From NCBI GenBank assembly GCA_043228905.1, contig JBHGNT010000016.1, positions 8,184,001 through 8,248,000 on the forward strand: a stretch of 64,000 nucleotides of DNA, read 5' to 3'. Source of the stretch: Azolla caroliniana (Eukaryota > Plantae > Polypodiophyta). The notes beneath the pieces were generated by a model. It was given only the letters and a program-made list of their open reading frames with translations. It was not told where the DNA came from and did no database searches. The position numbers and the translations under genes were made by a program. Each line of letters begins with the position of its first letter. Position 1 is the first letter of the stretch. Positions 4,760-60,554 of the stretch are shown one piece after another.

Positions 4760-4820
4760 TAAGCCCGAATTCGAACCCAAGACCTAGGACTAATAGCATA
4801 ACAGTTTATTACTAGGCTAA
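4760..4820 (-). promoter_or_regulatory. tRNA-like Pol III A/B-box module (SINE-head-like) just upstream of the SDR ATG
   Basis: Minus strand TAGCCTAGTAA (4819-4809) and GGTTCGAATTC (4777-4767); T8-to-G53 spacing 43 nt; no full cloverleaf. Confidence 0.5.
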
Positions 4821-4849
4821 AGTAACTATGGTTAAGAAAGATTGATCTT

Positions 4850-5320: not shown

Positions 5321-5677
5321 AGTTAGGTGCAACTTCTCATAAATTTAGGAAATTGCAAGCATATATTCACTTGGCACCCCGAATTCATTCGCCTCCAAAG
5401 CTTTCTTGAAGTCTACAAAGCAACAATAGACTTTCCTTCATTAATACTTAGAGTGTGACAAGGTGATTGATGGTGTTATGTGTTTTCGAAAGCCAACTTG
5501 TCCATTGTCATGGACAAGTATAATAGAGTAGAGTAAACACAAGACTAAAAAACAAGAGAGAGGAAAAGAACAAGAACTCAACTTATAGAATCTATAACTA
5601 GTGTTGTTCACCTTGATTAGAATCAAGGTGCACCTGAGTATTTATACCAGAAGGTAGGACTATGTAAGCCAGCTAGA

Positions 5678-5790
5678 AATAGAGAATGCATGAGGATGCA
5701 CGCAATAGAGAATGCACGAGGATGCATGCAATAGAGAATGCATGAGAATGTGTGCAAGCTAGAAATGAGGATGCATGTAAGCTAGGAACT
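5678..5790. repeat. 26-bp tandem repeat (about 3 copies plus degenerate copies)
   Basis: AATAGAGAATGCAYGAGGATGCAYGC repeated three times; may be U3 of an old solo LTR. Confidence 0.75.
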
Positions 5791-5842
5791 TCCAATGTTC
5801 AATCTACACTACATGAAGTTATAGATTTATAAGGATGTATAT

Positions 5843-5917
5843 GTAGCTCAATTGGTAGGGTTGCCCAATAGAGACAATGAGGTCTTGTGTTCAATCCCTT
5901 CCTTCCTCTGTGGCATA
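5843..5917 (+). mobile_element. tRNA-derived SINE-like head (single unit of the dimer at 41.4-41.8 kb and 60.3-60.5 kb)
   Basis: GTAGCTCAATTGGTAGGGTTGCCCAATAGAGAC...GTTCAATCCC matches 60325-60397. Confidence 0.65.
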
Positions 5918-6299
5918 TGTCTATGACATCTGTAAGTTGTCTTACCATTTTTTCAACTCATACACTTATCTTTGATTCTATTATACATGCAAATAATTAT
6001 CATTAGCAAGCCAACCATGATAGTTCGGTAGTTGTTTATAATATAATTTATATCTCTGCCTTTATGTAAAGGTTTGATACAATTTGTAGTCAAATCGTAG
6101 GGCATGACATGTTGCAATGCATGATTAGACATATGACTTATCCATGCATGCGCTTCCTTTCTTGTTTATTTGAGCATTAATACATTAAAGATCTCTTGCC
6201 TTTCAAGGGACCAATTTCTTAAATCATATCAATATAAGAGATAGGGGTACAATAGGAAACTTAGAGGCAATGACCTCTAACTTTATACCTTTGCCAACC

Positions 6300-9657: not shown

Positions 9658-10812
9658 TGTCATGATATGACAATATTCGAACCCATGACCTTATGTTGCA
9701 TGGGTCGAGCCCTTGCCATTAGACTATATATTGTAATACGAAAGATATCATTTTCATTTATTATTTCACTATAGAAAATTGATGTATTTTTCCAAATTTC
9801 TCTGGAACATTCCAGAAACTTCAGGAGTACTCCTGAAAACACTATAAAAGGAGACACAAGGCATTATTTCAAACCAAATTGGTTCAATGCTAGTCTTAAG
9901 CCTCACAACTATTCTTGTACTTACTCTTAATATAATATATCTTTTGTTATCGTCACTCTCTCTCTCTCTCTCTCTCTCGATCTAGACCCCTCTCTTTCTC
10001 TCTCTCTCTCTGTCCTTCTCTAGTGAGTTCTACACCCTTTTCTCTCTGTTAGTACTAATTCACATTTTTTAGTACTAATTCCATCTTTGTCTTAGTATTG
10101 TTCTTGACAGTTTGATCGATTTTCCTCAGCCTCTTACCCCTCCTTCCTTTCATACTAATCCTCTTATCCTCCCTAGTAAAATGACAACTGTTAGCGCTTA
10201 GGAATACCAATCTGTTTTCTCGGAGCTTCAGTGCTTAAAAGAGAAGTTTGTAGCACTAGGGCAAGAAAATCACGGTCTATTGGGGGATCTTCAACAAATA
10301 ACTTTAGAAAAACAACAACACGGGGAGCTGACGTTACGTGTACAAAAACTTGAAGCGACTATTGTATCACTACAACAACAAGGATCAAGCGCTCAAGGGA
10401 CTCACAAAGAACCCAAGATCAGACTTCCTATGAAATTTGATGGGACTCGATCACAGTTTAGAGGTTTTCTTAATCAGGTATGCTTAGTGATTCAAATGCA
10501 TCCTTCTCGATATCCCACTGATGCATCATGAGTGGGACTAGTAGGCATGCTACTTAGTGGCACGACTTTGGCATGGTTCGCCCCTTGTTAGAAAAAAACT
10601 CTCCCTTGTTAAACAAATTCGAAGAGTTCATTAGCGAGTTTAAAGCCTGTTTTGGAGATACCGATAGTGTTAGGATGGCAATCAACAAAATCCGAAAATT
10701 GCGCCTAGGTGAGTGGCTGGCCTTGGCTTATGCTGTGGATTTTCGTCTTCTCACCACCGATATTCCCTGGGATGACCAGAAATTAATGGAGCCATTTCGT
10801 TTTGGCCTACGT

Positions 10813-18406: not shown

Positions 18407-21400
18407 ATCTGCGCAACCCATTAGTGTTTCCATTTCCTCTAAGCAAGTTAGCAATGTGTTCTTAGCTCAAGTAATGGTTAGTACTAAAAGTATTCCTCCA
18501 GTACATGTTTGCCCAGCATCAATAGTAGTTATTGATGGTCGTCCCATTGATTCCGGAAAAATTGTAGAAGAGTTAGAGCCAATTCAGGTTGTCCTAGATA
18601 ACTTAGTGTGTGTAGTATCATTTAATATAATTAGTAGTCCAGAACATCCAATTATCTTGGGATTACCATGGTTCGAATTACATAACCCAAACATATATTG
18701 GAGAGCAAGAGAAATCTAGGGATCTACTCATAGGATTGCAACCATTTCGCTACGTCAATTGCGTGTGAAAGGACGCAAGGAAGTAGTGTTTTTCTTCGCA
18801 ATATCAGTAAAACCTTCCGACACCACTAAAGAGGAATCCACAGTTCAACTTCCAAAGAAGCATCGTCATTATGCCAATGTGTTCAATAAGGTACAAGCTA
18901 ATACGCTTCATCACCACCGACCGTATGATTGCCCCATTGATTTACAACCGGGAAAAGAGCCACCATGGGACCCGATCTATAGCTTGTCACCAACCAAGCT
19001 AGAAGTCCTTCGAGCCTATATAGAGGAGAATTTGGCAAACGAGTTTATTCGAAATTCGAAATCTCCAGCCGGCGCACCCATTTTCTTTGTCAAGAAAAAG
19101 GATGGATCACTTCGTCTCGTCGTAGATTATCGTGGCTTGAATAAGGTCACCATCAAGAATAGGTATGCACTCCCCCTTATCTCAAGTCTTTTAGAACAAA
19201 TCAATGGTGCAAGGTTCTTCACAAAGATTGACTTACGAGGAGCATATAACCTCGTACGAATCCGACCAGGAGATGAATGGAAGACCGTGTTTCGCACCAG
19301 ATATGGGCACTTTGAGTATACGGTCATGCCATTCGGTCTCACTAATGCACCAGCAATCTTCCAGCACATGGCAAATGATATATTCCTAGATCTCTTGGAT
19401 GTTTGTTTGATCATCTATTTGGATGATCTACTGGTTTATTCGAAGACTCAAGAAGAGCATGATTCTCATGTACTGTTAGTACTAAAACGGCTTCGAGAAC
19501 ATAGTCTTTATGCAAAACTAGAAAAATGTTGTTTCGAGTGCAACCAGGTGGAATTTTTGGGCTATGTCATCTCCTCAGAAGGTATCTCTATGGATCCAGC
19601 TAAGGTCAAAACTGTGATAGAGTGGTAGACTCCACGTTCATTGCAAGATGTGCAATGCTTTTTAGGCTTTGCCAATTTTTACCGCAAGTTTATACAAGAT
19701 TACTCAAAGCTTATTCTGCCTCTCACACAACTTACCAAGAAGGGACAATCATTTGTTTGGTCTAAATAAGCGGACATGCCTTTTGAGAGTCTTAAGAAGG
19801 CATTGACATCAGCGCCTATTCTAGCTCATGTTGATCCGGAAAAACCTTTCATCATTGAGGTAGACGTGTCGGATTTCGCCTTGGGTAGCATTTTTTCACA
19901 ACAAGACGATGATGAAAACAATATCTTTTGTATTACAATATATAGTCTAATAGTAAGGACTTGACCTGTGTAACATAAGGTCTTGGGTTCGAATCTTGCC
20001 ATATCTTATGGCTTTTCACTCATGCTAATTTGACGTCGTTGAAATCAACTATGAAATTCACGATAAAGAGCTATTAGCAATAGTGGACACTTTTACGCAA
20101 TGGAGGCCATTTTTAGAGGGATCTTTTCATCAAGTCACCGTATTCAATTATCACAAAAATCTTGCCTACTTCTAGAATGCTCGTGTATTAAATCGACGTC
20201 AAGCTTGTCGGGCCCAATTCCTCACTCGCTTCGACTTCAAAATTACATATCGTTCTGGGAAGCAGTAAGGGAAGGTTGACACGTTATCGCGGCGCTCATA
20301 TCTAGCACTGCATCCCGATGAGCCAGCATTCGATAACCAAAAGTAAGTAATCCTGGGACCAGCACGACTGCAATCAACGCGGGTTTTCGATATGCCATTG
20401 GATTCCCACATTATTGATACCATACGTGAGAACTTGAAGACAGATGCTTTCGCTCAAGCCATTCTAGGACAAATTGATCCCTCTCGGGCATCTTGTTCAT
20501 AGTCGCAACAACCAGGTACGGATTATCGAAAATACAAATGTCATGATGGATTACTATTCTTTAAGAAGCTCTTGTATGTTCCTAATGGTTCTTGTCACCT
20601 TCGAGTAGTCCAAAATTGTCATGACACATATACAACTGGGCATTTTGGTAGTACTAAAACGTTAGATTTAGTACAACGATCATTCTGGTGTCCCCATATG
20701 CGACGATTTGTTGAAGATTATGTTCGGACATGTGATACATGTTGCAGAGCAAAGATGCCAAGACATCATCCATATGGTTTATTGGAACCATTACCAATTC
20801 CAAACAAGCCGTGGCAATCCATTGCTCTAGATTTCATCATAGATCTTCTAGTTTCTAAGGGATTCAACGCGATCTTAACAGTAGTAGATCGATATACGAA
20901 GATGGCCCATTTCCTACCATGTACTAAGGAAATCACTAGTGAAGAAACCGCCAAAACTGTCATGCGTGAGGTATGTCGACATCATGGACTCCCCAATAGT
21001 ATCATTAGCGACTGTGGACCCAGTTCATCTCGAAATTCTGGAAGCACCTCTTCAAAATACTCAAGGTCACTTGTAACCTCTCCTCCGGCTACCACCCGCA
21101 AACAGACAAACAAGCAGAACGAACAAATCAAACGTTGGAACACTATCTTTGGTGTTTTTTAAGCTATCACCAAGATGACTGGGCAGATATTCTCCACTTC
21201 GCCAAATTTGCGTATAATAACTCTGTCCACTCATCGACTAAGGTTACACCATTTTATGCTTATACGGGCTATCATCCCCGGTGGTTTGTATTCGAAACTC
21301 CGGAGTTACCCACAAATCCTTGTGCAGAGGATCGTTTGGAGCTGTTACGCAAGATACATGCGGATTTATCTACTCATTTACAACAAGCTCAACAAACACA

Positions 21401-29200: not shown

Positions 29201-32200
29201 TGTCGTGATGTTGCATGTTCAGTGGGAGAAAAAGTAAAAATGTGTGGTTCCACGCACATTACACAAATACTTGTAAAAAATGGAAATAAATCAAGAATAA
29301 ATAATCCTAAGGCCTAATGGCATTGAGTGCATATAGAGAGGTGCAAGTAGGATTTGAACCTTGCACCTCCAAGATAGATGGCAATTAACTTACCACTAAA
29401 GCTACTACCAAGTGCTCTAGATTTTGTATATTTCCTTGTCATATTCAGTATTCCATAGGAAACAAATGTACAAAACCATGGGTTTTAAGCCTATGGTTTT
29501 GTGCATGCCACAAGAAAAACCATGTGCCCAAAAACCATGGGTCCAAGCCCATGGTTTTGTGCATGTTTGAAGCATGGATAGACCTATAAAAACCCTTCTA
29601 AGGCTTGTGTAAGGGGGGCTCAAGATGTGATATCACCATCATCATCACCATCAATATAAAATTCTTCTTATAATTATAATTCTTATTGTTCTTCTTCTTT
29701 TCTCATTGATCAATATTATCATACTTCTTATTGTTCTTCTTATAATCGTCAATCTTTCGATCTTCTCAAGTGTAACAATGTTTCCTTGACTCTAAAATTG
29801 ACATTGTCCTCTTTTCGATAACTTGGCGAACGTCCTCCTAGGCGCAAACGTTCTCCCCAGTCCAAGACCCCGACGGTCACACTCAAGTAGCACACACACG
29901 CGCATCTTTGCAACATCTCTTGGTGAACCTAACGTGAAGAGTGGTAGGGGAGGATGAAGATTGATGATGAATATCTCGTGGAGGCAATGTCAAAGATAAT
30001 GATAGAATTTTCAAGAGAAGGGAAAAGACCAGATGCGGCCCAACAAGTCGTCGAAAGTGTGGTCGAGCGAGTCGGTTGTTTCGACAGGGGCAATGTCCAA
30101 TTTTTTCTAGAAACCTACAATGTCGAGATGGATTCGAGAGGTGTAAACGAATATATGAGGCTGGAGTAGTTTTGTCGGGTGGTGGATGAACCGATCTACA
30201 AAGAGGTAAAAGAGCTTCGAGAAGCTCATGATTCGTGGGTGAATTTCACGGAGGCTCTATTGGAGGCATATGGCGACAATAGAACGAAGGGACGAGGTCA
30301 GTGTGAGTTTGACCAGTGGATGGCATCGGTGAAGACCCACCAAGGCACGACACAAGCATTCCTAGACTTCGAGCGTCATTTTTCTCAACTCTCGGAGTAG
30401 GAACAAAGATTGGTGGGGGTGGATAAGGTGTTGTTGTTCGTGAAGTCGATCAATCAAAGGGAAAGGATGGCAATCAGACTCAAATTTGAAGAAGATTACG
30501 ATGCAAATGGCCTCACCAAGGATTGGACCAAAGTGGAAAGAGTATGCCGACTACACGATAAGAGGAAGACGAGATTCTCATCGCAACAACACAACTCATG
30601 AGGGATGGTGAAAGGAGGACAAGATGCGACTACACACTACCACCAAAGGAAGAAAGCTCGAAGAGGGAAGGTTCCACAATACTCGACATAGAAGTCTTTA
30701 TGAGAGAGGCATTCGAGAACTTAAAGGCACAAGTTAAGGTTGAAGAGAAGCTTCAAAAGGAGCAAAAACGGAGGAAAATGGTGATCGAGGAAGAAGAGAC
30801 CTCCCAACAAATGCGGAGTAATGATACGGCCAATACGAAGGCCCAGGTTCGGTGCGACAATACCACGGGAGAAGGTGTGGAACAAGCCACCTTCTCGACT
30901 TACGGAGGAACAACGATCAAGAGAAAGGCCGAAGACTCGAGAGTGGGAAATTCCGCTTTAAGAGTGGATGAGCATTTCGGAACACACGTTGTGTCCGAAA
31001 TATCGAGTGAAGAAGGTGCAAGCATGAGCAAAGCTTGCGTGATCGAGGGAGATAAAGAGTGCACGGCCGATGTGATTGAGGCAGTAGCCACGAGGAACGA
31101 CATCGCGTCGGAGATGGCAATGGACGAGTCCACGGCGGATGGCCGTGTCGAGACTTTCGCAACACTTGACCTAGAGACTTGGGCAGTTGCGTTCGAGAGC
31201 CAACATGAGACCCAAGAGACGGAGAGTGGTGGGGAAGAAAAGATTGAAGCCAATGCGAATAAAAACGTTGAGGGAAAGATGGCTATGGATGAGTCGACGG
31301 TGACCGATGGTGCCGAGGTTCTCCCCACAATTGTTCCTGAGACTTCGGCAGTTGTGCCCGAGTGCCAACGTGAGACCCGAGAGACGGAAGGTGGTGGCGG
31401 GAAATCGAAGGACCGAAATGATGATGAGGACGAAGAGGAGGATCACCACAGATGAAGGGATCCCTCCACACCGATTCCGGAGACTTCGGCAGTTGTGCCC
31501 GAGAGCCAACATAAGACCGGACAGATGGAAGGTGGCACCGAGGAGATGAGGGTCAAAACCAGCGCATACGGAGTAACGGTGGCCAACAAGGAGGCCAAGA
31601 ACAAAGCTACAATAGAGTTCGATGAAGAGCCAGAGAGCAACAAGGAAGGAAGAACCGGAATACAATTTGGATGGAAGATGATGCAGTTGGTATTCCAACC
31701 CGAACGGAAGCCAACCCGGATGGGAGCTGATCAACCGGGCCCGACCCAACGGAAACCTGGACATAACCCAATCGTCCGAGTCCGATTCGGCCGAATGTGA
31801 ATCCAAACGAAGGCCGACCAAGCCAGAAGCTGATTGGTCGAGACCGATCCAAACAGAAGTTCAGTCGGCCTAGCCGAAGGTCGAAGCAGACGAGCCGCGA
31901 CACCCGGTCGAGGATGTTGAGCATGAGGAAAGGCAAACAAGAGACATGTTCAAAGTAGCGGACAAAAAGATGGTGCGGGCGAGGCACAAGAAAGGAGGAA
32001 ATCAAAGACCAACCACCTTTGACCTTGCCACATCACTCTTTTCTTCTTGGCACATACTAGAGGATGTGCAATTTGGTGGGGGTGGATGTCGTGATGTTGC
32101 ACGTCTAGTGGGAGAAAAAGTGAAAAAGTGTGGTTCCACGTACATTACACAAATACTTGTAAAAATGAAAATAAATCAATAATAAATAATCCTAGGGCCT

Positions 32201-32755
32201 AATGGCATTGAGTGCGTATAGAGAGGTGCAAGTAGGATTTGAAACTTGCACCTCCAAGATAGAAAGAAATTAACTTACCACGAAAGGTACTACCAAGTGC
32301 TCTAGATTTTATATATTTCCTTGTTATATTCAGTATTCCATAGGAAACAAACGTACAAAACCGTGTACACAAAACCATGGTTTTAAGCCTACGGTTTTGT
32401 GCATGTCATAAGCAAAACCATGTGCACACAACCATGGGTTTAGCCCATGGTTTTGTGCAGGTTAGAAGCATGGATAGACCTATAAAAACCCTTGTAAGGC
32501 TTGTGTAAGGGGGGGGCTCAATATGTGATATCATCAGCATCACCATCAATATAATATTCTTCTTCTTATATTATTCTTCTTGTTTATCTTCTTCTCGAGT
32601 GTACAAATTTCTGATCTTCTCAAATGTAACATTGTTTCCTCAAATCTTACATTCACATCGTCCTCTTCTCAATAACTTGATTGTCATCCTCCCTGGTCCG
32701 AGACCCCGGTGGTCCCATTCAAGCGAAGCACGCACGCACACACATCTTCACGACA
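29201..32755 (+). mobile_element. Non-autonomous gag-only LTR element C; LTRs 29201-29915 and 32087-32755
   Basis: Paired LTRs; Trp-type PBS TGGTGAACCTAACGTGAA (29921-29938); PPT TGGGGGTGGA; degenerate gag plus acidic repetitive ORF and no pol; removing the element plus 4 bp (CTGA/CCGT) restores host GNDGKQTYL. Confidence 0.85.
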
Positions 32756-33388
32756 CCGTCGTTCCCGAATGAGACATTTCCGATATGCCAAATTGGGTGA
32801 GTTGTGTCATCTCTAGTTTCGACATAGTCGGGTCGATCGGGCTTTCTCAATTCTCGGAACCAATCTTTGTGAGAAGTCATGTGATTGGACACTCCAAAGT
32901 CGACAAACCATACATTGTCTAAAGGAGAGGTATTTGTCGGACCCTGTGTCGACATCGTGTGCTTTATACCTCATTACGAACATTTTTCCATGGTCGTCAT
33001 AATCGGAATTCGTGGCATAGTTCATGAGTTGTTGGTTGCTCAAAACCGACTCTCGTTTCTTCTTTCGGCACTCCTCTTCGTAGTGGCCAAGTTTTCCACA
33101 GTACCCACATTTGATCGGGCTGTTTTGGTAGCTTAGTCCGGTAGGATGGCTCCCCCTTCTACTGAACTCCCTAGGAGTGTTCCTGGCCTCCTGCCAATGG
33201 TGGGAATTACGTTCTCAGGGCGGCTGACCCTGTCGGCCCCGGCCGAATCAACCTCTGTTTCCTTAGCCGAATCCTCTTCCCTCTGTCAGGAACAGTACTG
33301 AGACAGAGAAGGAATTAGTACTAAACGAAGGATTAGTACTATGAGAGGTGTAGAACTTCTTCAAGAGAAGGAAGGAGTGAGCGAGATG

Positions 33389-33428
<40 letters not shown>

Positions 33429-36400
33429 TGATAAGAAAGATATGTATTATATGAAGAGAATATACAATGGTGGCTAAAAGGCTTAAGACTGGCGTTGAAC
33501 CAATTTGGTTCAACATAATGCCTAGTGCCCTCTTTTATAGTGTTTTCAGGAGTAATCCTGAAGCTTCTAGAATGTTCCAGAGAAATCTGGAATATACACT
33601 AATTTCCTATAATAAAATGTAAATGAAAATAATATCCTACGTATTACAATAGATGGTCTAATGGTCAAGAGCTCGACCCATATAACCTAAGGTCATGGGT
33701 TCGAGTCTTGCCATATCATGACACTATCCCCCCTTTAAAACGACGAGTGTCACGAGCATTGGTCACATTCTCGATCGGTTCCCAAGTACGTTCGTTGGGA
33801 CTATAGCCTAGCCAATCGACTAGATAGTAGAGCTTGTTGCGAACAATCTTGGAATCAAGGATGGCGGCAACCTCGTACTCCGGCCCATCTTCAAGCTCGA
33901 TCAGGGGTGGCGGTTGGATAAGACGTCCTGGGATGGTGCTCTCGTGGTAGGGTTCGAGGAGAGAACTATGAAACACCGGATGTATCCGAAGTTGAGGAGG
34001 TAGATCAAGACGAAAAGCGACATCATTAATCTGTCCAATAATACGGAAAGGACCTAATCGCCGATAATCCAACTTCTCACATGGGCGAGTAGTCTTGATG
34101 TGTCGTCGTAGCAGCCACACCCGATCTCCAATATTAAAACTGGATGGAAGTCGATGACGATCCGCGTAGACCTTGTGTGTTTGTTGAGCTTGCTGGAGAT
34201 GAGTAGATATATCCGCTTGTATCTTGCGTAACCGCTCCAAACGATCCTCCGCGCACGGATTTGTGGACACCTCTGGGGTTTCAAGTACACTCCACCGGGG
34301 GTGACATCTCGTATAAGCATAAAATGGCGTAACTTTAGTGGATGCGTGGATAGAGTTGTTATAGGCAAATTCGGCGAAGTGGAGAATATCTGCCTAGTCG
34401 TCCTGATGATAACTGAGAAAGCACCGCAGATACTACTCCAACATTTGATTTGTTCGTTCAGCTTGGCCATCGGTTTGTGGGTGGTGGCCGAAGGAGAGGT
34501 TACAAGAGACCTTGAGCATGTTAAAAAGGTGCTTCCAGAATTTTGACACGAACTGGGGTCCACGGTCGCTGATGATACTATCGGGAAGTCCATGATGCCG
34601 ACATACTTCACGCATGACAATTTCGGCAGTGTCTTCACTGGAGATCTCCTTAGTACATGGAAAGAAATGAGCCACCTTCGTGTATCGATCGACCACTGTT
34701 AGAATCGCATTGAACCCCTTAGAGACTGGGAGATCTGTGATGAAGTCTAGAGCAATGGATTGCCATGGCTTGCTTGGAATTGGTAATGGTTCTAATAAAC
34801 CATATGGATGATGCTTTGGCATTTTTGCTCTGCAACATGTATCACAAGTCCGAACAAAATCCTCGACAAATTGTCGCATACAGGGCCACCAGAATGATCG
34901 TTGTACTAAATGTAATGTTTTAGTTCTACCAAAATGCCCAGCTGTATATGTGTCATGGCAGTTTTGAACTACTCGAAGGCGGCAAGAACCATTAGGAACA
35001 TACAAAAGTTCTTTAAAGAAGAGTAATCCATCATGGTATTTGAATTGCCGATAGTCCGTACCTGGTGGTTGCGACTGTGAACACGACACTCGAGAGGGAT
35101 CAATTTGTGCTAGTATAGCTTGGGCGAACGCATCTGTCTTCAAGTCTTCACGTATGGTATCGATAACGCGGGAATCCATGGGCATGTCAAAGATTTGTGT
35201 TGCTTGTAGTCGTGCCGGTCCCAAGATGACTTGTTTTTGGTTATCGAAAGCTGGCTCGCCGGGACGGGGTGCTAGATACGAACGTCGTGATAATGCATCT
35301 GCCTTCCCTTGGTGCTTCCCCGGACGATATGTAATTTTGAAGTCGAAACGCATGAGGAAGTGGGCCCACCAAGCTTGACGTCGATTCAACACACGAGCAT
35401 CCTGAAAGTAGGCAAGATTCTTGTGATCACTAAATACGGTGACTGGATGAGAGGATTCCTCCAGAAAATGCCTCCATTGCATAAAAGAATCCACTATTGC
35501 CAATAGCTCCTTATCATGAATTTCGTAGTTAATTTCGGCGGCGTCAAACTTGCGTGAGTGAAAAGCCACAGGATGTAGCTTCTCATCATTCCCTTGTTGT
35601 GACAGAATGCTCCCCAATGCAAAATCCGATACGTCAGCTTCGACAATGAATGCTTTTTCCGGATCAACATGAGCTAGAATTGGAGCCGATGTAAATGCCT
35701 TTTTAAGACTCTCGAAAGCCATGTCCGTTTCTTCAGACGTGATGAACAGTTGTCCCTTCCTGGTAAGTTGTGTGAGAGGTAGAACGATCTTTGAGTAATC
35801 TTGTATAAACTTTCGGTAAAAATTGGCAAAGCCTAGGAAGCATTGCACATCCCGCACCGAACGCGGAGTCTGCCATTCTACCACCGTTTTGACCTTAGCT
35901 GGGTCCATGGAGATGCCTTCTGACGAAATGATGTAGCCGAGAAATTCCACTTGGTTGCACCCGAAACTACATTTTTCCAGTTTACATACAGACCATGTTC
36001 TCGAAGTCGTTTTAGTACTAATAATACATGAGAATCATGTTCTTCTTGGGTCTTTGAATAAACCAGTAGATCATCCAAATAGATGATCAAACAATCATCC
36101 AATAGATCTCAGAATATATCATTTGCCATGTGCTGGAAGACTGTCGGCGCATTAGTGAGGCCGAACGGCATGACCGTATACTCGAAGTGCTCATATCTGG
36201 TGCGAAACGCGGTCTTCCATTCGTCTCCTGGTCGGATCCGTACGAGGTTATATGCTCCCCGTAAGTCAATCTTCATGAAGAACCTGGCACCATTGATCCG
36301 TTCTAAAAGACTTGAGATAAGGGGAAGAGCATACCTATTCCTGATTGTAACCTTATTCAAGCCACGGTAATCTACAACGAGACGAAGCGATCCATCTTTT

Positions 36401-37191
36401 TTCTTAACGAAGAAAATGGGCGCGCCGGCTGGAGATTTCAAATGTCGAATAAAACCATTTTCCAAATTCTCCTCGATATAGGCCCGAAGGACTTCCAGCT
36501 CGGTTGGTGACAAATTGTAGATCGGTCCCCATGGCGGCTCTTTTCCCGGTTGTAAATCGATGGGGCAATTGTACGGTCGATGATGAGGAAGTGTGTTGGC
36601 TTGTACTTTATCGAACACATCGGCGTAATGACGATACTTCTCGGGAAGTTGAACGGTGGATTCTTCTTTAGTGGTGCTGGAGGGGTTTATTGATATTGCA
36701 AAGAGGAACATTTCCTCCTCGCGCCCTTCTTTACGCAACTGACATAGCGAAATGGTTGCCATCTTCTGAGTTGACCCTTGGGTTTGTCGACACCGGATTT
36801 CTCTTGTTCTCCAATCTATGTCTGGGTTATGTAACTCGAACCACGGTAATCCTAAACTATAGGATGTTCTGGGATACTAATAATATTAAATGATACTACA
36901 CATGCTAAGTTATCTAGGACAATATTAATGGGCTCTGACTCTTCTATGATATTTCCGGAAGCAATGGGACGTCCATCAATGACTACTACAGAGGCTGAAC
37001 ACTGGAGTTTTCTTAGGGATATCTTATGAGCTTGAGCAAATTTCTTATCCATAAAGCAAGAGTTAGCTCCGGAATCTAGGAGTGCTAGGACATGTACTGG
37101 AGGGGTACTTTTAGTACTAACTATTACTTGGGCTACGAACACATCACTAACTTGCTTAGAGGGAATGGAACCACTAATGGGTTGCACATAT

Positions 37192-37244
37192 CTAGGGCTG
37201 TCCAACCAAACGGCTCCTATTTTGGCTGGACTTAGTCGTTTAAC
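37192..37244 (-). promoter_or_regulatory. Putative -1 ribosomal frameshift signal at gag/pol junction (copy F)
   Basis: G_TTA_AAC, 6-nt spacer, 11-bp stem; the -1 frame reads VKRLSPAKIGAVWLDSPRYV into protease. Confidence 0.72.
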
Positions 37245-38383
37245 TCTTCTTCTAACTGACTAAGGACATCAAATTTGTTCGCTAGATCTGGGCTATTAGT
37301 ACTATTAGGACTATCAGATATTCCTACTGAAATAGGCTCGGGTTTAGTACAATTAGAACTAGCGACTATTTGGTTTACCTGTCTTCGAGGCCTATGGGGG
37401 CAATTTATTGCGATATGTCCTGGTCCACCGCAGTAAAGACATAGTCGATTTGTACGGCGTCGCTGCTTTTCTTCTTCGGATAATGGCCCTCGACGACGTG
37501 TAGTGTCAATCTCCATCGGAGTCGGAGTATTCGCTGGAGGCGCATTATATGACTCCCTCGGAAAAGGTCTTGCTACCACTGAGGCGTAGGTGGGCTCTGA
37601 TCTTGGCCTCGGCATCTGTAGTTGTCTTTTCGAACGTCGCTCAAAGAGGTGGTTGTCACATCTCACCGCGCGACTGATTGCTTCTGTTAAGGACTTTGGC
37701 TCTTCGGGGAAGGTCAAGAGTAAATCCTTGACATCGTTGCGTAAACCATAACGGAATTGCTCCATCAACGCTTGATCATCCCAAGGGATATCGGCAGCGA
37801 GTAGGCGAAAATCTGCAGCGTATGCGGAAGCTGGATGGTCACCTTGGCGTAATCGCCGAATTTTGTTGATTGCGGTCCTGATGCTGTCAGTATCTCCGAA
37901 ACATGCTTTAAACTCACCTAGAAACTCTTCAAAATTGTTGAGTAACGGAGATTCCTTTTCTAATAGTGGAGCGAACCATGACAACGCTGAGCCACTTAAC
38001 AAAGTGCCTACTAAACCCACTCGTGATGCATCGGTGGGATATCGGGAAGGATGCATTTGGATAACTAATCGTACCTGGTTAAGGAACCCTCTAAACTGCG
38101 ATCGCGTTCCATCGAACTTCGTGGGAAGGCCAATCTTGGGTTCTTTATGAATCCCTTGTGTTCCGGGCCCTTGTTGTTGCATCGCTACGATGGTTGCTTC
38201 GAGTTGTTGCACGCGTAACGCAAGTTCCCCATGCTGTTGTTGCGTTTGCTGCTTTTCTAAGGAGATTTGCTGAAGATCCCCCAGCAATCGTTGCTTTTCT
38301 TGTTCCAAAGCATGGAACTTCTCTTTCAAGCATTGAAATTCCGAGAAAACAGATTGATATTCTTCAGCGCTAATAGTGGCCAT
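37232..38383 (-). CDS. gag: Intact retrotransposon Gag (383 aa; coiled coil, capsid, CCHC knuckle)
   Basis: Open ORF with ATG; PTKFDG, LRQG, PTPMEID and CLYCGGPGHIAINC motifs. Confidence 0.85.
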   Translation of the reverse strand: MATISAEEYQSVFSEFQCLKEKFHALEQEKQRLLGDLQQISLEKQQTQQQHGELALRVQQLEATIVAMQQQGPGTQGIHKEPKIGLPTKFDGTRSQFRGFLNQVRLVIQMHPSRYPTDASRVGLVGTLLSGSALSWFAPLLEKESPLLNNFEEFLGEFKACFGDTDSIRTAINKIRRLRQGDHPASAYAADFRLLAADIPWDDQALMEQFRYGLRNDVKDLLLTFPEEPKSLTEAISRAVRCDNHLFERRSKRQLQMPRPRSEPTYASVVARPFPRESYNAPPANTPTPMEIDTTRRRGPLSEEEKQRRRTNRLCLYCGGPGHIAINCPHRPRRQVNQIVASSNCTKPEPISVGISDSPNSTNSPDLANKFDVLSQLEEELND

Positions 38384-39784
38384 GGGATGAAAGAAAAGAG
38401 GAATAAGAGATTAGTAGGAAATGAGAGAGATAGAAGGTAGAAAAATTGGTTCAAACTGTCAGGAACAGTACTGAGACAGAGAAGGAATTAGTACTAAATG
38501 AAGGATTAGTACTATGAGAGGTGTAGAACTTCTTTGAGAGAAGGAAGGAGTGAGCGAGACAGGAAGAGAGAGTGTGTGTGTGTGATGATAAGAAAGATAT
38601 GTATTATATGAAGAGAATATACAATGGTGGCTAAAAGGCTTAAGACTGGCGTTGAACCAATTTGGTTCAACATAATGCCTAGTGCCCTCTTTTATAGTGT
38701 TTTCAGGAGTAATCCTGAAGCTTCTAGAATGTTCCAGAGAAATCTGGAATATACACTAATTTCCTATAATAAAATGTAAATGAAAATAATATCCTACGTA
38801 TTACAATAGATGGTCTAATGGTCAAGAGCTCGACCCATATAACCTAAGGTCATGGGTTCGAGTCTTGCCATATCATGACACCCTCATGCGACTGAGAGTA
38901 GAGCATCTGACCATCAGGTGCATTGCTCCTTCGTCGGACGTGATTCTCAACCAACAGTATCGATTGAAGGTCGAAAAAGGAGAGAGGGTTCTCCCTTGCA
39001 AGGATGGCCGATCTGATCGTGTCGAATCGTGGTGTTAAGCCATTTCATCATCGTTGATGGTAACATTGATTGATCCGAGGGCATCGCACGGCTCCTTGAT
39101 CTTCAAGGTATAACTAGTGATCGACATATCCCTTTGCTGAATATTGTTCAACTCCTGATGGAGTTGAAGCTTGCGTGCAACTGTATTGGCAACAAAAATC
39201 TTCTTGAGGTTGCTCCAAGCTTCTTTTGGCGTTTTTGCCTCTCGTATATAACCAAGCATGTGATCATGAACGCATGATGCTAGACAATACAACACACGAT
39301 TTGCTGCTTGCTCCCATGCTAGGTAGTCGGCATGTATTGGGTTGGGTTGGTTTTCATGAGCTCCTTCAATGTAGCTCCAATAACCTTGACAAACAAGGTA
39401 TTGATGCATCTTTTATTCCCAAGATGCGAAGTTTGTCCTGTCAAGCTTCTCTGTAAGAAGAGTGCTTCCCATCTGAGTATTCATCATGTCGTTTTCTTCT
39501 TTGTTGTTGAACTGGTTCTATTGATCGTTAGTGTGTAGTACAACACAATTGATCAAGTTTGATCAGACAATCACACGCTCTAATATTGATAGAGTGTATA
39601 AGACAAAGGCTAGTCGTACACAATATGAGGGTTTGATGGATAATAACTAAGTTACAAATGGTTGGTTTAAATACCAACTAACCTAGGGCAATTGCCCTTT
39701 CTACTATTTATAAAACTAGCCTAGTATGTCCACTTACTAGTGAGAAAGTCACTTCATTAGGGAGGTGGGGTTTGATTCTCAACA

Positions 39785-41400
39785 TATGTAAAATCCACTT
39801 GTTACAATACTTCTTAGTTTCCTCTATCTATCTATCCTATGTAGGGAGAGGGACATCTTGTAATGCCACTAGAAAACCTAAATATACATTTGAGGAAATT
39901 ATCCCCACATGATGTAACATCTTGAAATTCCACATAAGAATACCTTTCAACTTCTTCATATAGGCTTTCACCCCATGTCTACAATCAAACATGGAAGAAT
40001 TATGCATATTCCAATTGTGTTTTAGTTCCCAATATAATACAAATGGAACAATATTTCCATCTCGTCATTTGAATCATTTTGAACATATTGAGAAAAAACT
40101 CATTTTTGAGGTCTCAAATGACTTGCCAAACATTCGATAAGTACTTCCAAATTATACATGTTATAGGACATATAATGAACCTGTGTGTATTGTCCTCCAA
40201 CATAATGGTGCAAAAGAAACAAATGCCTAACCCTAATCCTCATCTCTTTAAGGCTAAACCTAACAAGAGCCCACCAATCATGTCTCTCCATATCAATAGC
40301 TTTGCACAAAATGGCAAATGAGAATGCCAACCACGTTATAATATTTACCACCACCTTGCATTCGACTTACATACATTCCACACTTTTTCTACTTTAAGAG
40401 ATAGCCAAGATAATGATGTCATTGCATGATGATACAATATATTTATAGTGAACTATAACAAGTGTGTACCATGCCGTAATCACCAATTCACCCAAGGTGC
40501 AACATTTGTTTTCAATGGCAAAGATCCATGAAACAATGTTATATCTTGTAATTTCTCCCAAATAAATCCGTAATTTAGGGGAATACATAACAATCGTTTG
40601 GCATCTTCAAATTTTGACAACTGTTGAGATTCATTATCAACCAGATATCCCAAATTTACAACCCCCAATCGAAATAAACAATTGAATTGAAATCTCAGCT
40701 TCTCTTTTCCATGCCAATACAACACCCGAGAATAAACAATCAATTCATTTTGCAATGAATTACAAAATTCTCGATCTGAACTTGATGGTGCCCACTCAAA
40801 AAAAGATAATGCATCTTGCCATGACCTTACCGACTGTTGTACATATACAAAATGTCAAATCTTTAGAGAAATACATCCATTGAGTAATGGCCACCACGAT
40901 GCTTGATCTTTGTTTTTCCATGCACCGATCCTTCATGCTCAATAAAATATTGTGTCATAGATATCCATAGTTAATCTTGTTGACACATATCTCGTAATAA
41001 TGCAAATCTACGAGCCATCAAATTCATTTCCAAATCCAATTTTTTTTGCACCACCTAACCATTTAGGAATAACCAAATGGTCCCATGAAATCCATGTAAC
41101 TCCCATTGTTTCTCCCTTCGGCCATAACAAGAACCGAAGAGGTTGCAACAATATTTGTAATGCTTTATTAGTTCAAGGAAGTAATGGTAAAAAATATAAT
41201 AACATGGGTATCAAGATACATTTCACCACTTTGAGTCATATATGAAAGGGCCATAATTGGGACTTCCAATTCATAAATTTGACCTTCAATTTACTACCAA
41301 TCAAATCAATTAGTTGAACATTTGCAACATCAACACCCAATGGATATCCCAAATGCCAATAAATTGATCCTCGTGTAATCACTAACCCTCACCATCCCAA
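39785..41400 (-). mobile_element. 5'-truncated degenerate L1-type LINE (3' part), sibling of 60555-63198
   Basis: Colinear with ~61598-63198 (HGKEKLRxQFNxLFRLG; zf-RVT-like CFFC; shared 3' AAGTGGATTTTACATA). Confidence 0.85.
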
Positions 41401-41401
41401 T

Positions 41402-41791
41402 CTTTTTTTTATCATAATTAGCTTACCCTAGTGGTAAGTCGTTTACACTATTATGACTACATCTTGGGTTTGAAACCCAATTTCCTCACCTCTCTATTAC
41501 TCCATAGGTATCTCTTATTTCAATATATACCATTGTGGAATGTAGGGGTTGAACCCATGACCACCTAGTGTCCATTGGGCAACCATACCAACAAAGCTTG
41601 TAATTAGCTTACCTTAGTGGTAAGTTGTTAACACTACAAGCACTGCGTCTTGGGTTTGAAACCCAGTTTTCTCACTTCTCTCTATTATTTACTTCATATA
41701 TATCTCTTAATTCACTAGATGCCACTGTGGAATGTAGGGGGTTGAACCCATGACCACCTGGTCTCCATTGGGCAACCTTACCAACAAAGCT
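41402..41791 (-). mobile_element. Two tandem copies of a ~190-bp SINE-like element made of two convergent tRNA-like modules
   Basis: Each copy has a plus-strand module (TACCYTAGTGGTAAG...GGGTTTGAAACCC) and a minus-strand module (GTTGGTAAGGTTGCCCAATGG...GGGTTCAACCCC); homologous to 60325-60522; A-rich end next to the LINE. Confidence 0.7.
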
Positions 41792-42677
41792 CTCTCTCTC
41801 TCTCGCTCTCTCGCTAAGGGAAAAATACCAAGATATACTAGGACCCCTCCCACCCTCTCAAAACTATTCGATACCCTAGATATAAAGAAACTAGGTAGAT
41901 ATATCGTAGAGCTATGACAACATAAAGAGAATAAGCTATAAAATGCTAATCATAACCTTCCTAATATCCACCAATATGTAACCAATGATTTTTTTCATGG
42001 ACAGGTGGGGACAATGAACATGGACAAACATGCACCACTTGGCCTCTCCTTCGTTGAAGCAGAAAACCAAAGAACAACCAAACGCCCTCGGATGTCGGAC
42101 CTCAAAGTCACTCATTGTGTAGAAGCAATTAAGAAGATACGGGAACGTGAGTTACACCACCTAGAAGCTATGGTCGGGGTACCTTTTACATGGGGACCAT
42201 GGGCCAGACCCACATCGAAACCCTTTGATCTCTTGCTCCTTTTCAAGAGACTTGGATGAAAAGGAAACTAGGCCTAGCACATGGCCATTTCCTTTATAGA
42301 ACATGTCACACCGTAACACATTTTGTACAGTACTAGAACTCTTTTATCTAAGTTTATTTTTATTTTTATTTTTGACAATTCGGTACACGTCCCATTTTGT
42401 TGTAACCTATTGTCTCATGGGCCAAATTGGGTCTCAGAAGACGTTAATATATCTTCCTTCCTTCCTTCCTTCCTTTCTTTCTTTCTAATGATAACCTTAC
42501 CTTGGGACAAGTCATGGGGGGCATTTTTCGAATTAAGTAAAAACTAGGGGTACTCGAAGAATATTATTAACCTAAAGGCTTTTCTTCTTCTTCTTCTTCT
42601 TCTTCTTCTTCCATCACTATTTCTTCTTCGTCTCAGCCTTCTTCTTCTTCTGATTCTGCTGCAGGTGCAGAGCAGCC

Positions 42678-49350: not shown

Positions 49351-52035
49351 TCATGTACTTTTGATCCATTTAGATTCATTCTCAAAGGCAAATCTACCAA
49401 CCTCTATGTTTCCCCATTTTTCACACCCTGTGAGCATTGCATCCCAAATGAGGGGAAGAGAATCAGATTGCATTTTTGCAGCCATCTTGAGGGCCATATC
49501 TAAATGGCCCGCCCGAGCAAGAAGAGAGACCATGCACGTGTGATGCTCAATAGTAGGACTAATTCCATAGTCCTCAGTCATTATCTCAAGATATGCTTGA
49601 CCCTTCTCCACCAAGCCTCCATGACAACATGCAACTAGAACACCAACAAAAGTGCCAGAATCTGGCAAAACTCCTTCAAGTTGCATGTGTTCGAAGCATC
49701 TCAAAGCCTCTACCCCATGCTTGAATTTGGCATATCCTGCAATCAATGCATTCCACGAGTTCACGTCTCGAGATGGAAGCATATCAAACACATCTTGCGC
49801 CTTTATAAGCAATCCACATTTCATATACATGTCCGCAAGTGCATTCCCGATAGACACATCTGCTTCCAGCAAACCTTCCCTATCCACCTCAGCATGAATT
49901 TCCTGACCTTTCTCTATGGCTCCAATACTACCACAAGCCTTCAAGCCACAAACATAAGTCACCACATTTGGACTGATCCCATTGGATTGCATCTGATTGA
50001 AACAGTTCAATGCTTCTTTTCCATGTCCATTATTGGCATATCCTGCAATCAATGCTGTCCATGAGACTGTATCGCGAACAATGAGTTTGTCGAAAACCTC
50101 CTGAGCATGCTGAAGCAAGCCACATTTTGCATACATATCAACCAATGCACTGCCAATAACACTATCTCTTTCTAATAACCCTTGCTTGGAAATCTCTACA
50201 TGTATTTCTCTGCCTTCTTTGATGGCCCCAAGGCTGCCACAAGCTTTCAAAGTACATACAAATGTAACAGCATCTGGAGAGATATTCTCGTCTTGCATCT
50301 GTTCAAAACAAGCTATTGCTTCCTTACCACACTCATATTTTACATAACCTGAGATCAATGCGTTCCATGAGATCACATCACGAACCAAAAGATTATCGAG
50401 TACTTCTTTTGCTCTTCTGAGGTATCCACATTTCGAATACATGTCAACCAAAGCACTGCCCACTACAACATTCTTTTCCAAACATCCTCGTCTGGAGATC
50501 TCTATATGTATTTCTCGGCCCTTGTCTATGTCCCCAGTGGTAGCACAAGCTTTCAACCCACAAACGAGTGTGCTAACATCAGGGGCAACTCCTTCGAGCT
50601 GCATATGAGAGAAGCATTTTAATGCTTCTTTCCCATATTCATGTCTAGCATATCCAGACATTAGTGCATTCCATGTGATTACATCACGTAAAGGAAGAAC
50701 ATCAAACACCTCTTGTGCTTTCATGAGCAAACCACAGTTCCCATACATGTCAACTAATGCATTACCAACAGCAATTTCTTTATAGAGCACACCTTTCTTT
50801 ACAGTTTCAGCATGTATTTCCTCACCTTTTGATGTTTCCCCAACTCTCCCACACGCTGTCAACGAGCATACATAAGTGACAGCATTCGGGGTCACCCCTT
50901 TGAGTTTCATTCTTTCAAAGCATTCAAGAGCTGACTCTCCACTCTCATACTTAGCATATCCTGATATAAGTGATGTCCACGATACTACATCTTGGATGCA
51001 AAGATCATCAAAAGCTTCTTGTGCATTTGCAAGCAACCCACACTTCGCATACATGTCGACTAGTGCATTGCCAATCACTATATTATCTCTAATCATCTCT
51101 AATTTTGCTATTTGGGCATGAATTTGTTTACCTTCTGTAGATGATCCAATGTGAGTACAAGCATTCAAGCAACAAACAAAAGTGACTGCATTAGGAGGTA
51201 TCCCTTCATTAAGCATCTGTCCAAAAGAATATAGTGCTTTCATACCACTATTTTGGTTTGTATATCCTGCAATCAAAGTCGTCCACGAGACTATGTCACG
51301 ATTTGAAAGATCATCAAACACTTCTTGTGCTTTTGTAACAAAACCAAATTTGGCATAGAAATCTATCAAAGCATTAGCTACAACAACATTCTTCGCCATA
51401 AGACCAATCCTAGCAATCTCAGCGTGTATCTCTATGCTCTTATCTATGGATCTAAAAGAGTAACAAGCTTTCAAAATGTAAACAAAAGTAACGACATTGG
51501 GAGAGATACCATGATCTTGCATCTCTTCAAAGCAATTGAAAGCCAGTTCAAAATGCTCTTTCTTCGCATACCCATAGATTATAGCATTCCAAGATCCGAT
51601 TGATCGAATTGGGAGGCGATCAAAAACCTCTTTTGCCTTATTGAGATCACCACATTTAGCATACATGTCAAGCAAAGCATTCCCAACAAAAAGGTTTTGA
51701 TCTAGAAGACCCTTTCTAGCTATATCCGAGTGTAATGTATACCCTTTTTGGCTATCTTTGAGCTCAGCACAAGCTCTGAGTAAGGACACAAAGGAAGCTG
51801 GATTCAAGAGTGAATGAGAATTCTTGTTTTGCAGGATTTCTTCATACAAATGGAGTGCAAGATGTGATTCACCATTTCTGATATGAGCTCTTAGGGCAGA
51901 AGAAAACCCATGAAATGGTTTTGTGGGCATGCCAGTTATGAAGATGAAAAGAGTTACTATATTTCTACTGAAGCTCTGTTTTCTTGTGGAACTGCAATAA
52001 GAACCAAGGGAGTGAGTGGGTTTTGAGCCCACAAC
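49351..52035 (-). CDS. PLS-class pentatricopeptide repeat protein with partial E domain (putative organellar RNA-editing factor)
   Basis: About 7 P-L-S triplets (GNALVDMYAKCG...RDVVSWTALIAGY...PNVVTYVCGLKAC), then YGISPTIEHHTCMVSLLARAG and an E1 motif; ORF opens at an acceptor-like TTCTTACCTTAG (52037-52036); first in-frame ATG at 51930. Confidence 0.92.
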   Translation of the reverse strand, partial: VVGSKPTHSLGSYCSSTRKQSFSRNIVTLFIFITGMPTKPFHGFSSALRAHIRNGESHLALHLYEEILQNKNSHSLLNPASFVSLLRACAELKDSQKGYTLHSDIARKGLLDQNLFVGNALLDMYAKCGDLNKAKEVFDRLPIRSIGSWNAIIYGYAKKEHFELAFNCFEEMQDHGISPNVVTFVYILKACYSFRSIDKSIEIHAEIARIGLMAKNVVVANALIDFYAKFGFVTKAQEVFDDLSNRDIVSWTTLIAGYTNQNSGMKALYSFGQMLNEGIPPNAVTFVCCLNACTHIGSSTEGKQIHAQIAKLEMIRDNIVIGNALVDMYAKCGLLANAQEAFDDLCIQDVVSWTSLISGYAKYESGESALECFERMKLKGVTPNAVTYVCSLTACGRVGETSKGEEIHAETVKKGVLYKEIAVGNALVDMYGNCGLLMKAQEVFDVLPLRDVITWNALMSGYARHEYGKEALKCFSHMQLEGVAPDVSTLVCGLKACATTGDIDKGREIHIEISRRGCLEKNVVVGSALVDMYSKCGYLRRAKEVLDNLLVRDVISWNALISGYVKYECGKEAIACFEQMQDENISPDAVTFVCTLKACGSLGAIKEGREIHVEISKQGLLERDSVIGSALVDMYAKCGLLQHAQEVFDKLIVRDTVSWTALIAGYANNGHGKEALNCFNQMQSNGISPNVVTYVCGLKACGSIGAIEKGQEIHAEVDREGLLEADVSIGNALADMYMKCGLLIKAQDVFDMLPSRDVNSWNALIAGYAKFKHGVEALRCFEHMQLEGVLPDSGTFVGVLVACCHGGLVEKGQAYLEIMTEDYGISPTIEHHTCMVSLLARAGHLDMALKMAAKMQSDSLPLIWDAMLTGCEKWGNIEVGRFAFENESKWIKST

Positions 52036-60290: not shown

Positions 60291-60324
60291 GAGAGAGAGA
60301 GAAAGAGAGAGAGACCAGATGGAT

Positions 60325-60522
60325 GTAGCTCAGTTGGTAAGGTTGCCCAATGGAGACCAGGTGGTCATTAGTTCAACCCCTACATTCCACAATGGCATCT
60401 AGTGAAATAGAGATATATATGAAGTATATAATAGAGAGGTGAGGAAATTGGGTTTCGAACCCAAGACATGGTGTTTGAAGTGTTATCGACTTACCACTAG
60501 GGTAAGCTAATTACGATAAAAA
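60325..60522 (+). mobile_element. ~195-bp SINE-like element with two convergent tRNA-like modules
   Basis: Plus-strand TAGCTCAGTTGG (60326) and GTTCAACCCC (60371); minus-strand TACCCTAGTGG and GGTTCGAAACC; A-rich end. Confidence 0.72.
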
Positions 60523-60554
60523 GAGAGAGATATATATATATATCTAGATAGATT

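Follow-up and report, generated by a model that had tools for sequence, protein, structure and literature searches.

Outer LTR edges of two gag-pol chromovirus lineages carry a conserved antisense tRNA-gene-type promoter signal with predicted TFIIIC/Pol III binding

Results

A self-priming chromovirus with an interrupted pol

Within the window (the whole 64-kb stretch of DNA analysed here), the retroelement referred to below as element B is a 5.6-kb gag-pol element that lies on the minus strand and is bordered by a 5-bp target duplication, GAGGG. Its 3' LTR (TGTCA..TGACA) spans 33284..33723 (-) and is directly preceded by a polypurine tract (33724..33736, -); its 5' LTR, with the same termini, spans 38457..38880 (-). 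The Pfam domains found between them on the minus strand follow the Ty3/gypsy order, gag-RT-RNase H-integrase with a C-terminal chromodomain: gag at 37232..38410 (-), part of the reverse transcriptase at 36109..36876 (-), a frame with RNase H and integrase at 34433..36034 (-), and the integrase C-terminus with its SH3 and chromodomain at 33716..34393 (-). Pol is interrupted by two frame changes and the C-terminal end of the chromodomain is shortened; the three aromatic residues of the cage (Y24, W45 and Y48; EYEV..VDW.GY in the alignment) are nonetheless present, which makes it a group I chromodomain as defined in PMC3350952.

A Pol II TATA box is found in the 5' LTR at 38690..38696 (-), and the predicted self-primer, at the start of R, follows it by about 33 nt (38652..38663, -). 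The primer-binding position (38443..38454, -) offers 12 nt complementary to the predicted RNA 5' end and no tRNA primer-binding site. Similar self-priming complements of 9-12 nt, the RNA start again being predicted, were found in five related loci (L003, L008, L012, L013 and L017). The self-primer sits within a short palindrome at the start of R (window LTR positions 210-235), whose letters change together with the primer-binding site between families (L003, L008, L012, L013, L017, L018 and L024). By its self-priming and its aromatic-cage chromodomain, element B matches the Tcn1/Tf1-sushi type of chromovirus (PMC6317226).

The two LTRs are identical over their first 299 nt and show several differences in and after a microsatellite (four in the last 105 nt), possibly the trace of a recombinant U5 or of gene conversion. 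Elsewhere in the window, an 894-codon PPR frame (49351-52035, -) has its best named matches mostly in ferns, at about 36-51%, and the exon of an SDR gene resembles those of many seed plants at about 50%. The host is a land plant and likely not a seed plant.

An antisense A/B-box module at the LTR tips

The sequence-only reading had placed an A box from 33654 (TGGTCTAATGG) and a B box from 33698 (GGTTCGAGTC) at the edge of the 3' LTR, with 45 nt from T8 to G53 as in tRNA genes, and the same module in the other LTR at 38811; location, spacing and identity were all borne out. The A box (T8-G19) occupies 33654..33664 (+) and the B box (G52-62) 33698..33708 (+), with G53 at 33699; the intervening AGGTC (33690..33694, +) is tRNA variable-loop-like and corresponds to tRNA positions 44-48. 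In the 5' LTR, the identical module (38811..38865, +) is aimed outward into the flank. Both modules read on the plus strand and are antisense to element B because the latter is on the minus strand; T8 and G53 fall at LTR positions 70 and 25, respectively. At this spacing of 45, the boxes show no mismatch to the consensus A and B boxes.

In their A/B layout and tRNA-like spacing, the boxes match a type 2 Pol III promoter. The chance level was obtained by counting a loose A+B pattern in order-2 Markov shuffles: four matches were seen, versus 0.055 expected per 64 kb. In the 5' LTR of element B, 115 nt separate the A box from the Pol II TATA box, which lies further inward and faces the opposite way. 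The identification of an antisense tRNA-type Pol III module in the U3 of a gag-pol chromovirus is supported by the sequence, the action of TFIIIC and Pol III on it being a prediction.

The module in related chromoviruses

Relatives were collected by an integrase-chromodomain alignment, which yielded 79 metagenome loci from the best 80 of 556 confirmed stretches. The LTR start was set by rule in 54 loci and by eye in one, and three were too short, leaving 52 loci and the window. These were scored for antisense A and B boxes against the consensus boxes, with at most three mismatches and a spacing of 42-48, a range chosen after a wider pass. Within this set (best 80 of 556), the antisense pair was found in 14 of the 15 members of lineage A, to which the window's element belongs, in one of six members of lineage B and in none of the 32 other chromoviruses. 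The corresponding counts on the sense strand, for the same best 80 of 556, were 1/15, 0/6 and 0/32. Mismatches averaged 1.7 as observed versus 5.9 in shuffles. The first pass, with a spacing of 38-60, had also returned a control locus (L050) with two mismatches and three sense-strand rows with three mismatches in the window's palindromic family. Since the rows of lineage A include near-copies, the count of families weighs more than the count of rows.

A relaxed pattern run over 369 kb of loci (from the best 80 of 556) gave ten matches, each of them antisense and at an LTR start. A profile model recognised 18 carrier loci among the best 80 of 556: 14 of lineage A, L024, L018, L057 and, by a weak, AT-rich match, L020 (E 0.41). 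L012, L033 and L017 had at first been candidates for weak carriers; the profile model gave E 1.4 for L033 and no match for the other two. Every evaluable member of lineage A (15/15) carries the module once, complete and with a spacing of 44-47. Relatives with the same type of chromodomain and no module are L017, L012, L015, L020, L025, L069 and L021.

The pol frames are open over 1044-1235 codons in six carriers (L001, L003, L004, L006, L008 and L018), and the families are therefore likely autonomous. The carrier loci all come from one accession series and thus possibly do not represent independent hosts. No integrase relatives were found in viral contigs; three matches to the module pattern there had no pol nearby and were treated as chance.

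Conservation between families and between copies

Across eight LTR families (best 80 of 556), mean pairwise identity was 0.81 for the B box, 0.90 for AGGTC and 0.60 for the A box. In the same eight families it was 0.28-0.29 for the spacer, 0.34 for the upstream flank and 0.29 for the downstream flank. Apart from the module, the U3 regions of these families share only short patches, the rest being at background identity. Because box positions were chosen by score, which inflates their conservation, we also examined sites that had not been scored. AGGTC, noticed after looking at the data, is kept (at least 4 of 5 letters) in 8/8 families versus 0/32 controls, and the T that follows GG in 8/8 families versus 9/32 controls (both for the best 80 of 556). 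Twelve modules aligned without guidance were invariant at tRNA positions 8, 14, 44, 46, 47, 53, 54, 55 and 58. The better preservation of the boxes relative to the spacer between families is therefore upheld by pairwise identities, by unscored sites and by the unguided alignment. Some boxes are not canonical: L003, L004, L006 and L013 have T at position 10, and L006 has lost C61.

Individual copies behave differently from families. Eight individual copies from the window's family, mostly old ones, show differences at 18/88 positions of the B box (0.20) and at 9/48 of its invariant sites (0.19), versus 81/500 (0.16-0.18) for the flank; only the four A-box invariants (1/32 differ) and the tip are better kept. 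Decay of the boxes at the rate of the flank was part of the refuting result set out by the sequence-only reading, and on this point the outcome is split: between families the boxes are conserved, whereas among these eight copies the B box does decay like the flank (0.20 vs 0.16-0.18). The latter fits neutral decay of dead copies, and integrated copies show no sign of selection.

In the window's family itself, variants were counted at 6% or more in the 685 contigs of run X1. They fell at 6/54 upstream positions, at 1/11 A-box positions (the degenerate position 12) and at 4/8 loop positions; none were seen in the hairpin arms or the B box. The arm outside the boxes is as invariant as the boxes (0/17 variant positions in X1), which points to an RNA or hairpin constraint in this family.

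Neither a tRNA gene nor a shared RNA structure

The module is not a tRNA gene. ARAGORN predicted no gene in the window or in any of the 60 loci scanned out of the 79, and Rfam at E<=10 returned no match on either 5.8 kb or 111 nt. As the sequence-only reading had stated, the acceptor stem does not pair (3/7); the anticodon stem scores 2/5, and no covariation was seen. By contrast, its Met-tRNA-like label found no support: variation is highest in the would-be anticodon loop (23/64 positions differ), and CCCAT forms a hairpin arm. Its description of the module as a promoter-like relic holds in that the module is promoter-like and not a tRNA, and falls short in that eight or more LTR families, belonging to two lineages, have the module, so that the evidence goes beyond a relic.

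In the window's family only, the module folds into a rod hairpin (33653..33719, no strand assigned) whose loop, 33682-33689, is the variable part (z -4.5, 0/200 shuffles). In each of the seven remaining families, where z on the tRNA-sense strand ranged from -1.9 to +0.8, no such hairpin was found. The module alignment gave no consensus pair, the D and T stems across families were no better than shuffles (254/500), and no T4 terminator is common to the eight families. Folds, consensus and shuffles together rule out a cloverleaf or rod structure conserved across families. What is kept across families is the linear promoter sequence and its spacing, and the lack of a shared RNA structure favours a role at the DNA level. 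A SINE inserted in the LTR was also rejected: only 5-48 nt separate the B box from the LTR tip, and neither tail nor target duplication was seen.

Other modules in the window

A diverged copy of the element, copy A, carries the module in its 5' LTR (9673..9726, -). Both boxes had been said to persist there; they are present, at a spacing of 44, with C61, an invariant site, lost from the B box. The 3' LTR of copy A is missing its first ~165 bases. A module copy of about 79 bp is inserted in inverted orientation in the pol of copy A (19919..19997, +), and the short similar letters at both junctions are as in a templated repair event, which this insertion may represent. The second chromovirus lineage is represented by a solo LTR (5506..5928, -), L024-like, with an antisense module whose A box is at 5844 on the plus strand.

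A/B-like units are also present elsewhere in the window. A different LTR element (29201-32760, +) has LTRs about 88% identical and an acidic ORF without Pfam match, and no self-priming site was seen in it. Its LTR contains, some 150-205 nt from the edge, an A/B-like module in antisense orientation (29348-29405, -; E 0.002) whose B box is surrounded by a 10-bp stem; the trait may thus extend beyond chromoviruses in this host. An isolated A/B-like unit (4768-4821, -; E 6e-4) lies beside an SDR gene exon and a microsatellite.

A SINE-like repeat of about 205 bp with two convergent A/B-box modules is found beside GA microsatellites at 60310-60525 (+) and, in tandem, at 41395-41800 (-). Its left head, which begins some 9 nt ahead of its A box, shares about 82% of its letters with the L024 LTR module; its right end is A-rich. 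The suggestion that the LTR module could seed SINEs is met halfway by these data: a free repeat does share the head of the second lineage, and any exchange may have run in either direction.

Phylogenetic distribution of the module

A tree was built from 618 pol columns and 32 rows (best 80 of 556), and groups were named after the first tree. Lineage A (support 99/98) and lineage B (100/98) each form one clade, and lineage B is sister to the module-less L015/L020. A single clade of all carriers was rejected (p-AU 0.0085). Within lineage B, the module is clear in L024, L018 and L057 only, and doubtful in L033. The simplest history is two gains, or a transfer of U3 between co-resident lineages; one old gain followed by several losses is the alternative.

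Discussion

A predicted Pol III-type promoter that would act on chromatin

The U3 tips of two gag-pol chromovirus lineages thus carry a conserved, backward-facing tRNA-gene-type promoter signal at which TFIIIC and Pol III are predicted to bind. Conservation in eight families and in a second, non-sister lineage points to a selected TFIIIC/Pol III promoter, and the module probably is a selected promoter of this type. The boxes face outward and the TATA box lies 115-190 nt inward of them (in the families where it was read), so that they cannot drive the genomic RNA; such a promoter must therefore do something else. Supposing that it is a selected Pol III-type promoter, we lean towards a barrier function or an opening of chromatin as its main use. 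The specific proposal that the module binds TFIIIC and recruits a Pol III complex, which would travel with the element and shield the LTR's Pol II promoter as a chromatin barrier, seems to us almost evenly balanced, slightly on the unfavourable side.

According to this proposal, the module would have originated from a tRNA or from the head of a tRNA-derived SINE. The reverse transcriptase plausibly copied it immediately following plus-strand priming, a step that would account for the antisense orientation. Selection would operate in active master lineages, not in dead copies. TFIIIC would occupy the boxes and TFIIIB the AT-rich DNA between the A box and the TATA box, and the complex, standing between the flanking DNA and the TATA box, would stop silencing that spreads inward. 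Such a barrier would benefit an element that is predicted to be directed to H3K9-methylated chromatin by its group I chromodomain; MAGGY has a chromodomain of the same group, and it binds H3K9me2/3 (PMC3350952). In fission yeast, a tDNA barrier depends on TFIIIC as well as on Pol III and is active whichever way it is oriented (PMC2040200). The yeast barrier being orientation-independent, the fixed antisense orientation of the module is not explained by a barrier alone.

In a rival explanation, the promoter works and its product is what matters, namely a short RNA, antisense to the element, that would cover the U3 tip and the polypurine tract and tune copy number or feed small-RNA pathways. The module indeed has a full A+B promoter fixed in the antisense direction, and the hairpin of the window's family (z -4.5), with its variants confined to the loop in run X1, would suit an RNA product; foamy-virus U3 cassettes do make miRNAs (PMC3993851). 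However, the hairpin is missing in the other seven families and no consensus structure emerged, and with no shared T4 terminator the 3' end of such an RNA would depend on the flank. We consider this explanation fairly unlikely. The 12 sequencing runs consist of assembled contigs, most of them only guessed to be RNA, and the sole run recorded as RNA, X6, contributed three contigs, all outside the module, an outcome that counts neither for nor against a transcript.

A scenario that dispenses with function is unlikely in our estimation, yet has data on its side. The reverse transcriptase could repeatedly copy co-packaged tRNA or SINE RNA after plus-strand priming, and different families would so acquire different SINE heads at the same position and in the same orientation, as mere passengers. 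The host does hold free A/B-box repeats, one of them 82% like the L024 LTR module, and these SINE-like heads make repeated neutral capture possible; the carriers do not form one clade (p-AU 0.0085), and the B box decays at the flank rate in old copies. On the other hand, 15/15 evaluable members of lineage A have one complete module at a spacing of 44-47, neither acceptor stem nor tail nor target duplication accompanies it, and the persistence of the boxes next to spacers at background identity calls for selection or very frequent replacement. A role in integration is improbable: TFIIIC, held 15-60 bp away from the end of the cDNA, might aid the intasome, or the LTR might be a landing pad for Pol III-targeting elements. 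In every family the B box is indeed close to the LTR tip, at 5-48 nt, but that distance varies widely and no insertion was seen upstream of the A box in the window copies or the family LTRs inspected. Finally, it is very hard to credit that the boxes are a chance by-product of the LTR-end palindrome. The B box does lie in a hairpin arm of the window's family, where the palindrome gives weak sense-strand matches (three rows); nevertheless, boxes occur in families without a hairpin, 0.055 matches are expected per 64 kb and 0/32 controls carry the pair (best 80 of 556), so that controls, families and unscored sites already largely refute this origin.

Taken at its widest, the barrier reading would be that a tRNA-type TFIIIC/Pol III site was incorporated, on two or more occasions, at the outer LTR margin of autonomous chromoviruses that seek heterochromatin, as a boundary that they carry with them. 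A barrier of its own and a Pol III promoter that fires outward would then come with each insertion, and heads would pass between spent LTR tips and the SINEs of the host, possibly in either direction. We advance this wider picture as a tentative one, with roughly a one-in-three feel to it rather than an even one. If true, the open question of how retrotransposons inserted in silent chromatin are transcribed would have a simple, testable answer in a TFIIIC site that the LTR itself supplies, and LTRs at high copy number would spread numerous possible TFIIIC sites, along with SINE heads, across a plant genome.

Comparison with known systems

The sequence-only reading knew of no antisense case in a gag-pol chromovirus, and we likewise found no report of antisense tRNA-type boxes in the LTRs of coding chromoviruses in full-text searches of the literature outside subscription journals, Repbase and supplements. 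A 2026 paper on TRIMs cites, in its available part, only Cassandra and Helenus/Ajax for LTRs of this kind (PMC13570524). What is new here is that LTRs with small-RNA promoters would extend from non-autonomous TRIMs to coding elements.

The nearest likeness is to Helenus/TRIMp3 (Kojima 2024, PMC10886601), which includes one plant family, in Selaginella. There too, both LTRs contain tRNA-derived sequence with conserved A and B boxes and no functional cloverleaf. However, Helenus elements are non-coding TRIMs of 311-1263 bp with a tRNA primer-binding site, whereas element B is a self-priming 5.6-kb gag-pol element whose relatives have long pol frames. Pol III is thought to make the RNA of Helenus itself; here, the boxes face away and a Pol II TATA box is kept. 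The same paper argues that autonomous partners depend on Pol II and that long stretches of LTR are unlikely to be common to them and Helenus, and it remarks that "not a few" Repbase LTRs resemble parts of tRNAs, only those below 1 kb having been analysed (PMC10886601). Cassandra, as described there, resembles the present case in keeping a small-RNA-gene promoter in plant LTRs and differs in that this promoter is of the 5S type, belongs to a non-autonomous element and drives the element's own RNA.

With Tcn1 and Tf1-sushi elements (Neumann 2019, PMC6317226; Novikova 2010, PMC2864245), element B shares the order Gag-RT-RH-INT-chromodomain, the aromatic cage, self-priming, a 5-bp duplication and a non-seed plant setting. 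In contrast to what is found here, the available sections of these two papers mention no Pol III boxes. They place plant Tcn1 in mosses and lycophytes only; if the present host is a fern, the range of self-priming Tcn1-type elements goes beyond these groups (PMC6317226, PMC2864245).

Foamy viruses (Kincaid 2014, PMC3993851) are, like the elements described here, autonomous LTR retroelements with A/B-box Pol III units in U3. They are retroviruses, and their units produce hairpin miRNAs bounded by terminators, whereas the present module has no conserved hairpin or terminator, follows tRNA numbering and lies antisense at the LTR tip. For the mechanism, our model is the tDNA/TFIIIC barrier (Scott 2007, PMC2040200), in which a type 2 Pol III promoter stands between chromatin domains. 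In that system the promoters belong to host tRNA genes at a yeast centromere; here, the promoter would be carried by the transposon itself, and its barrier role is predicted.
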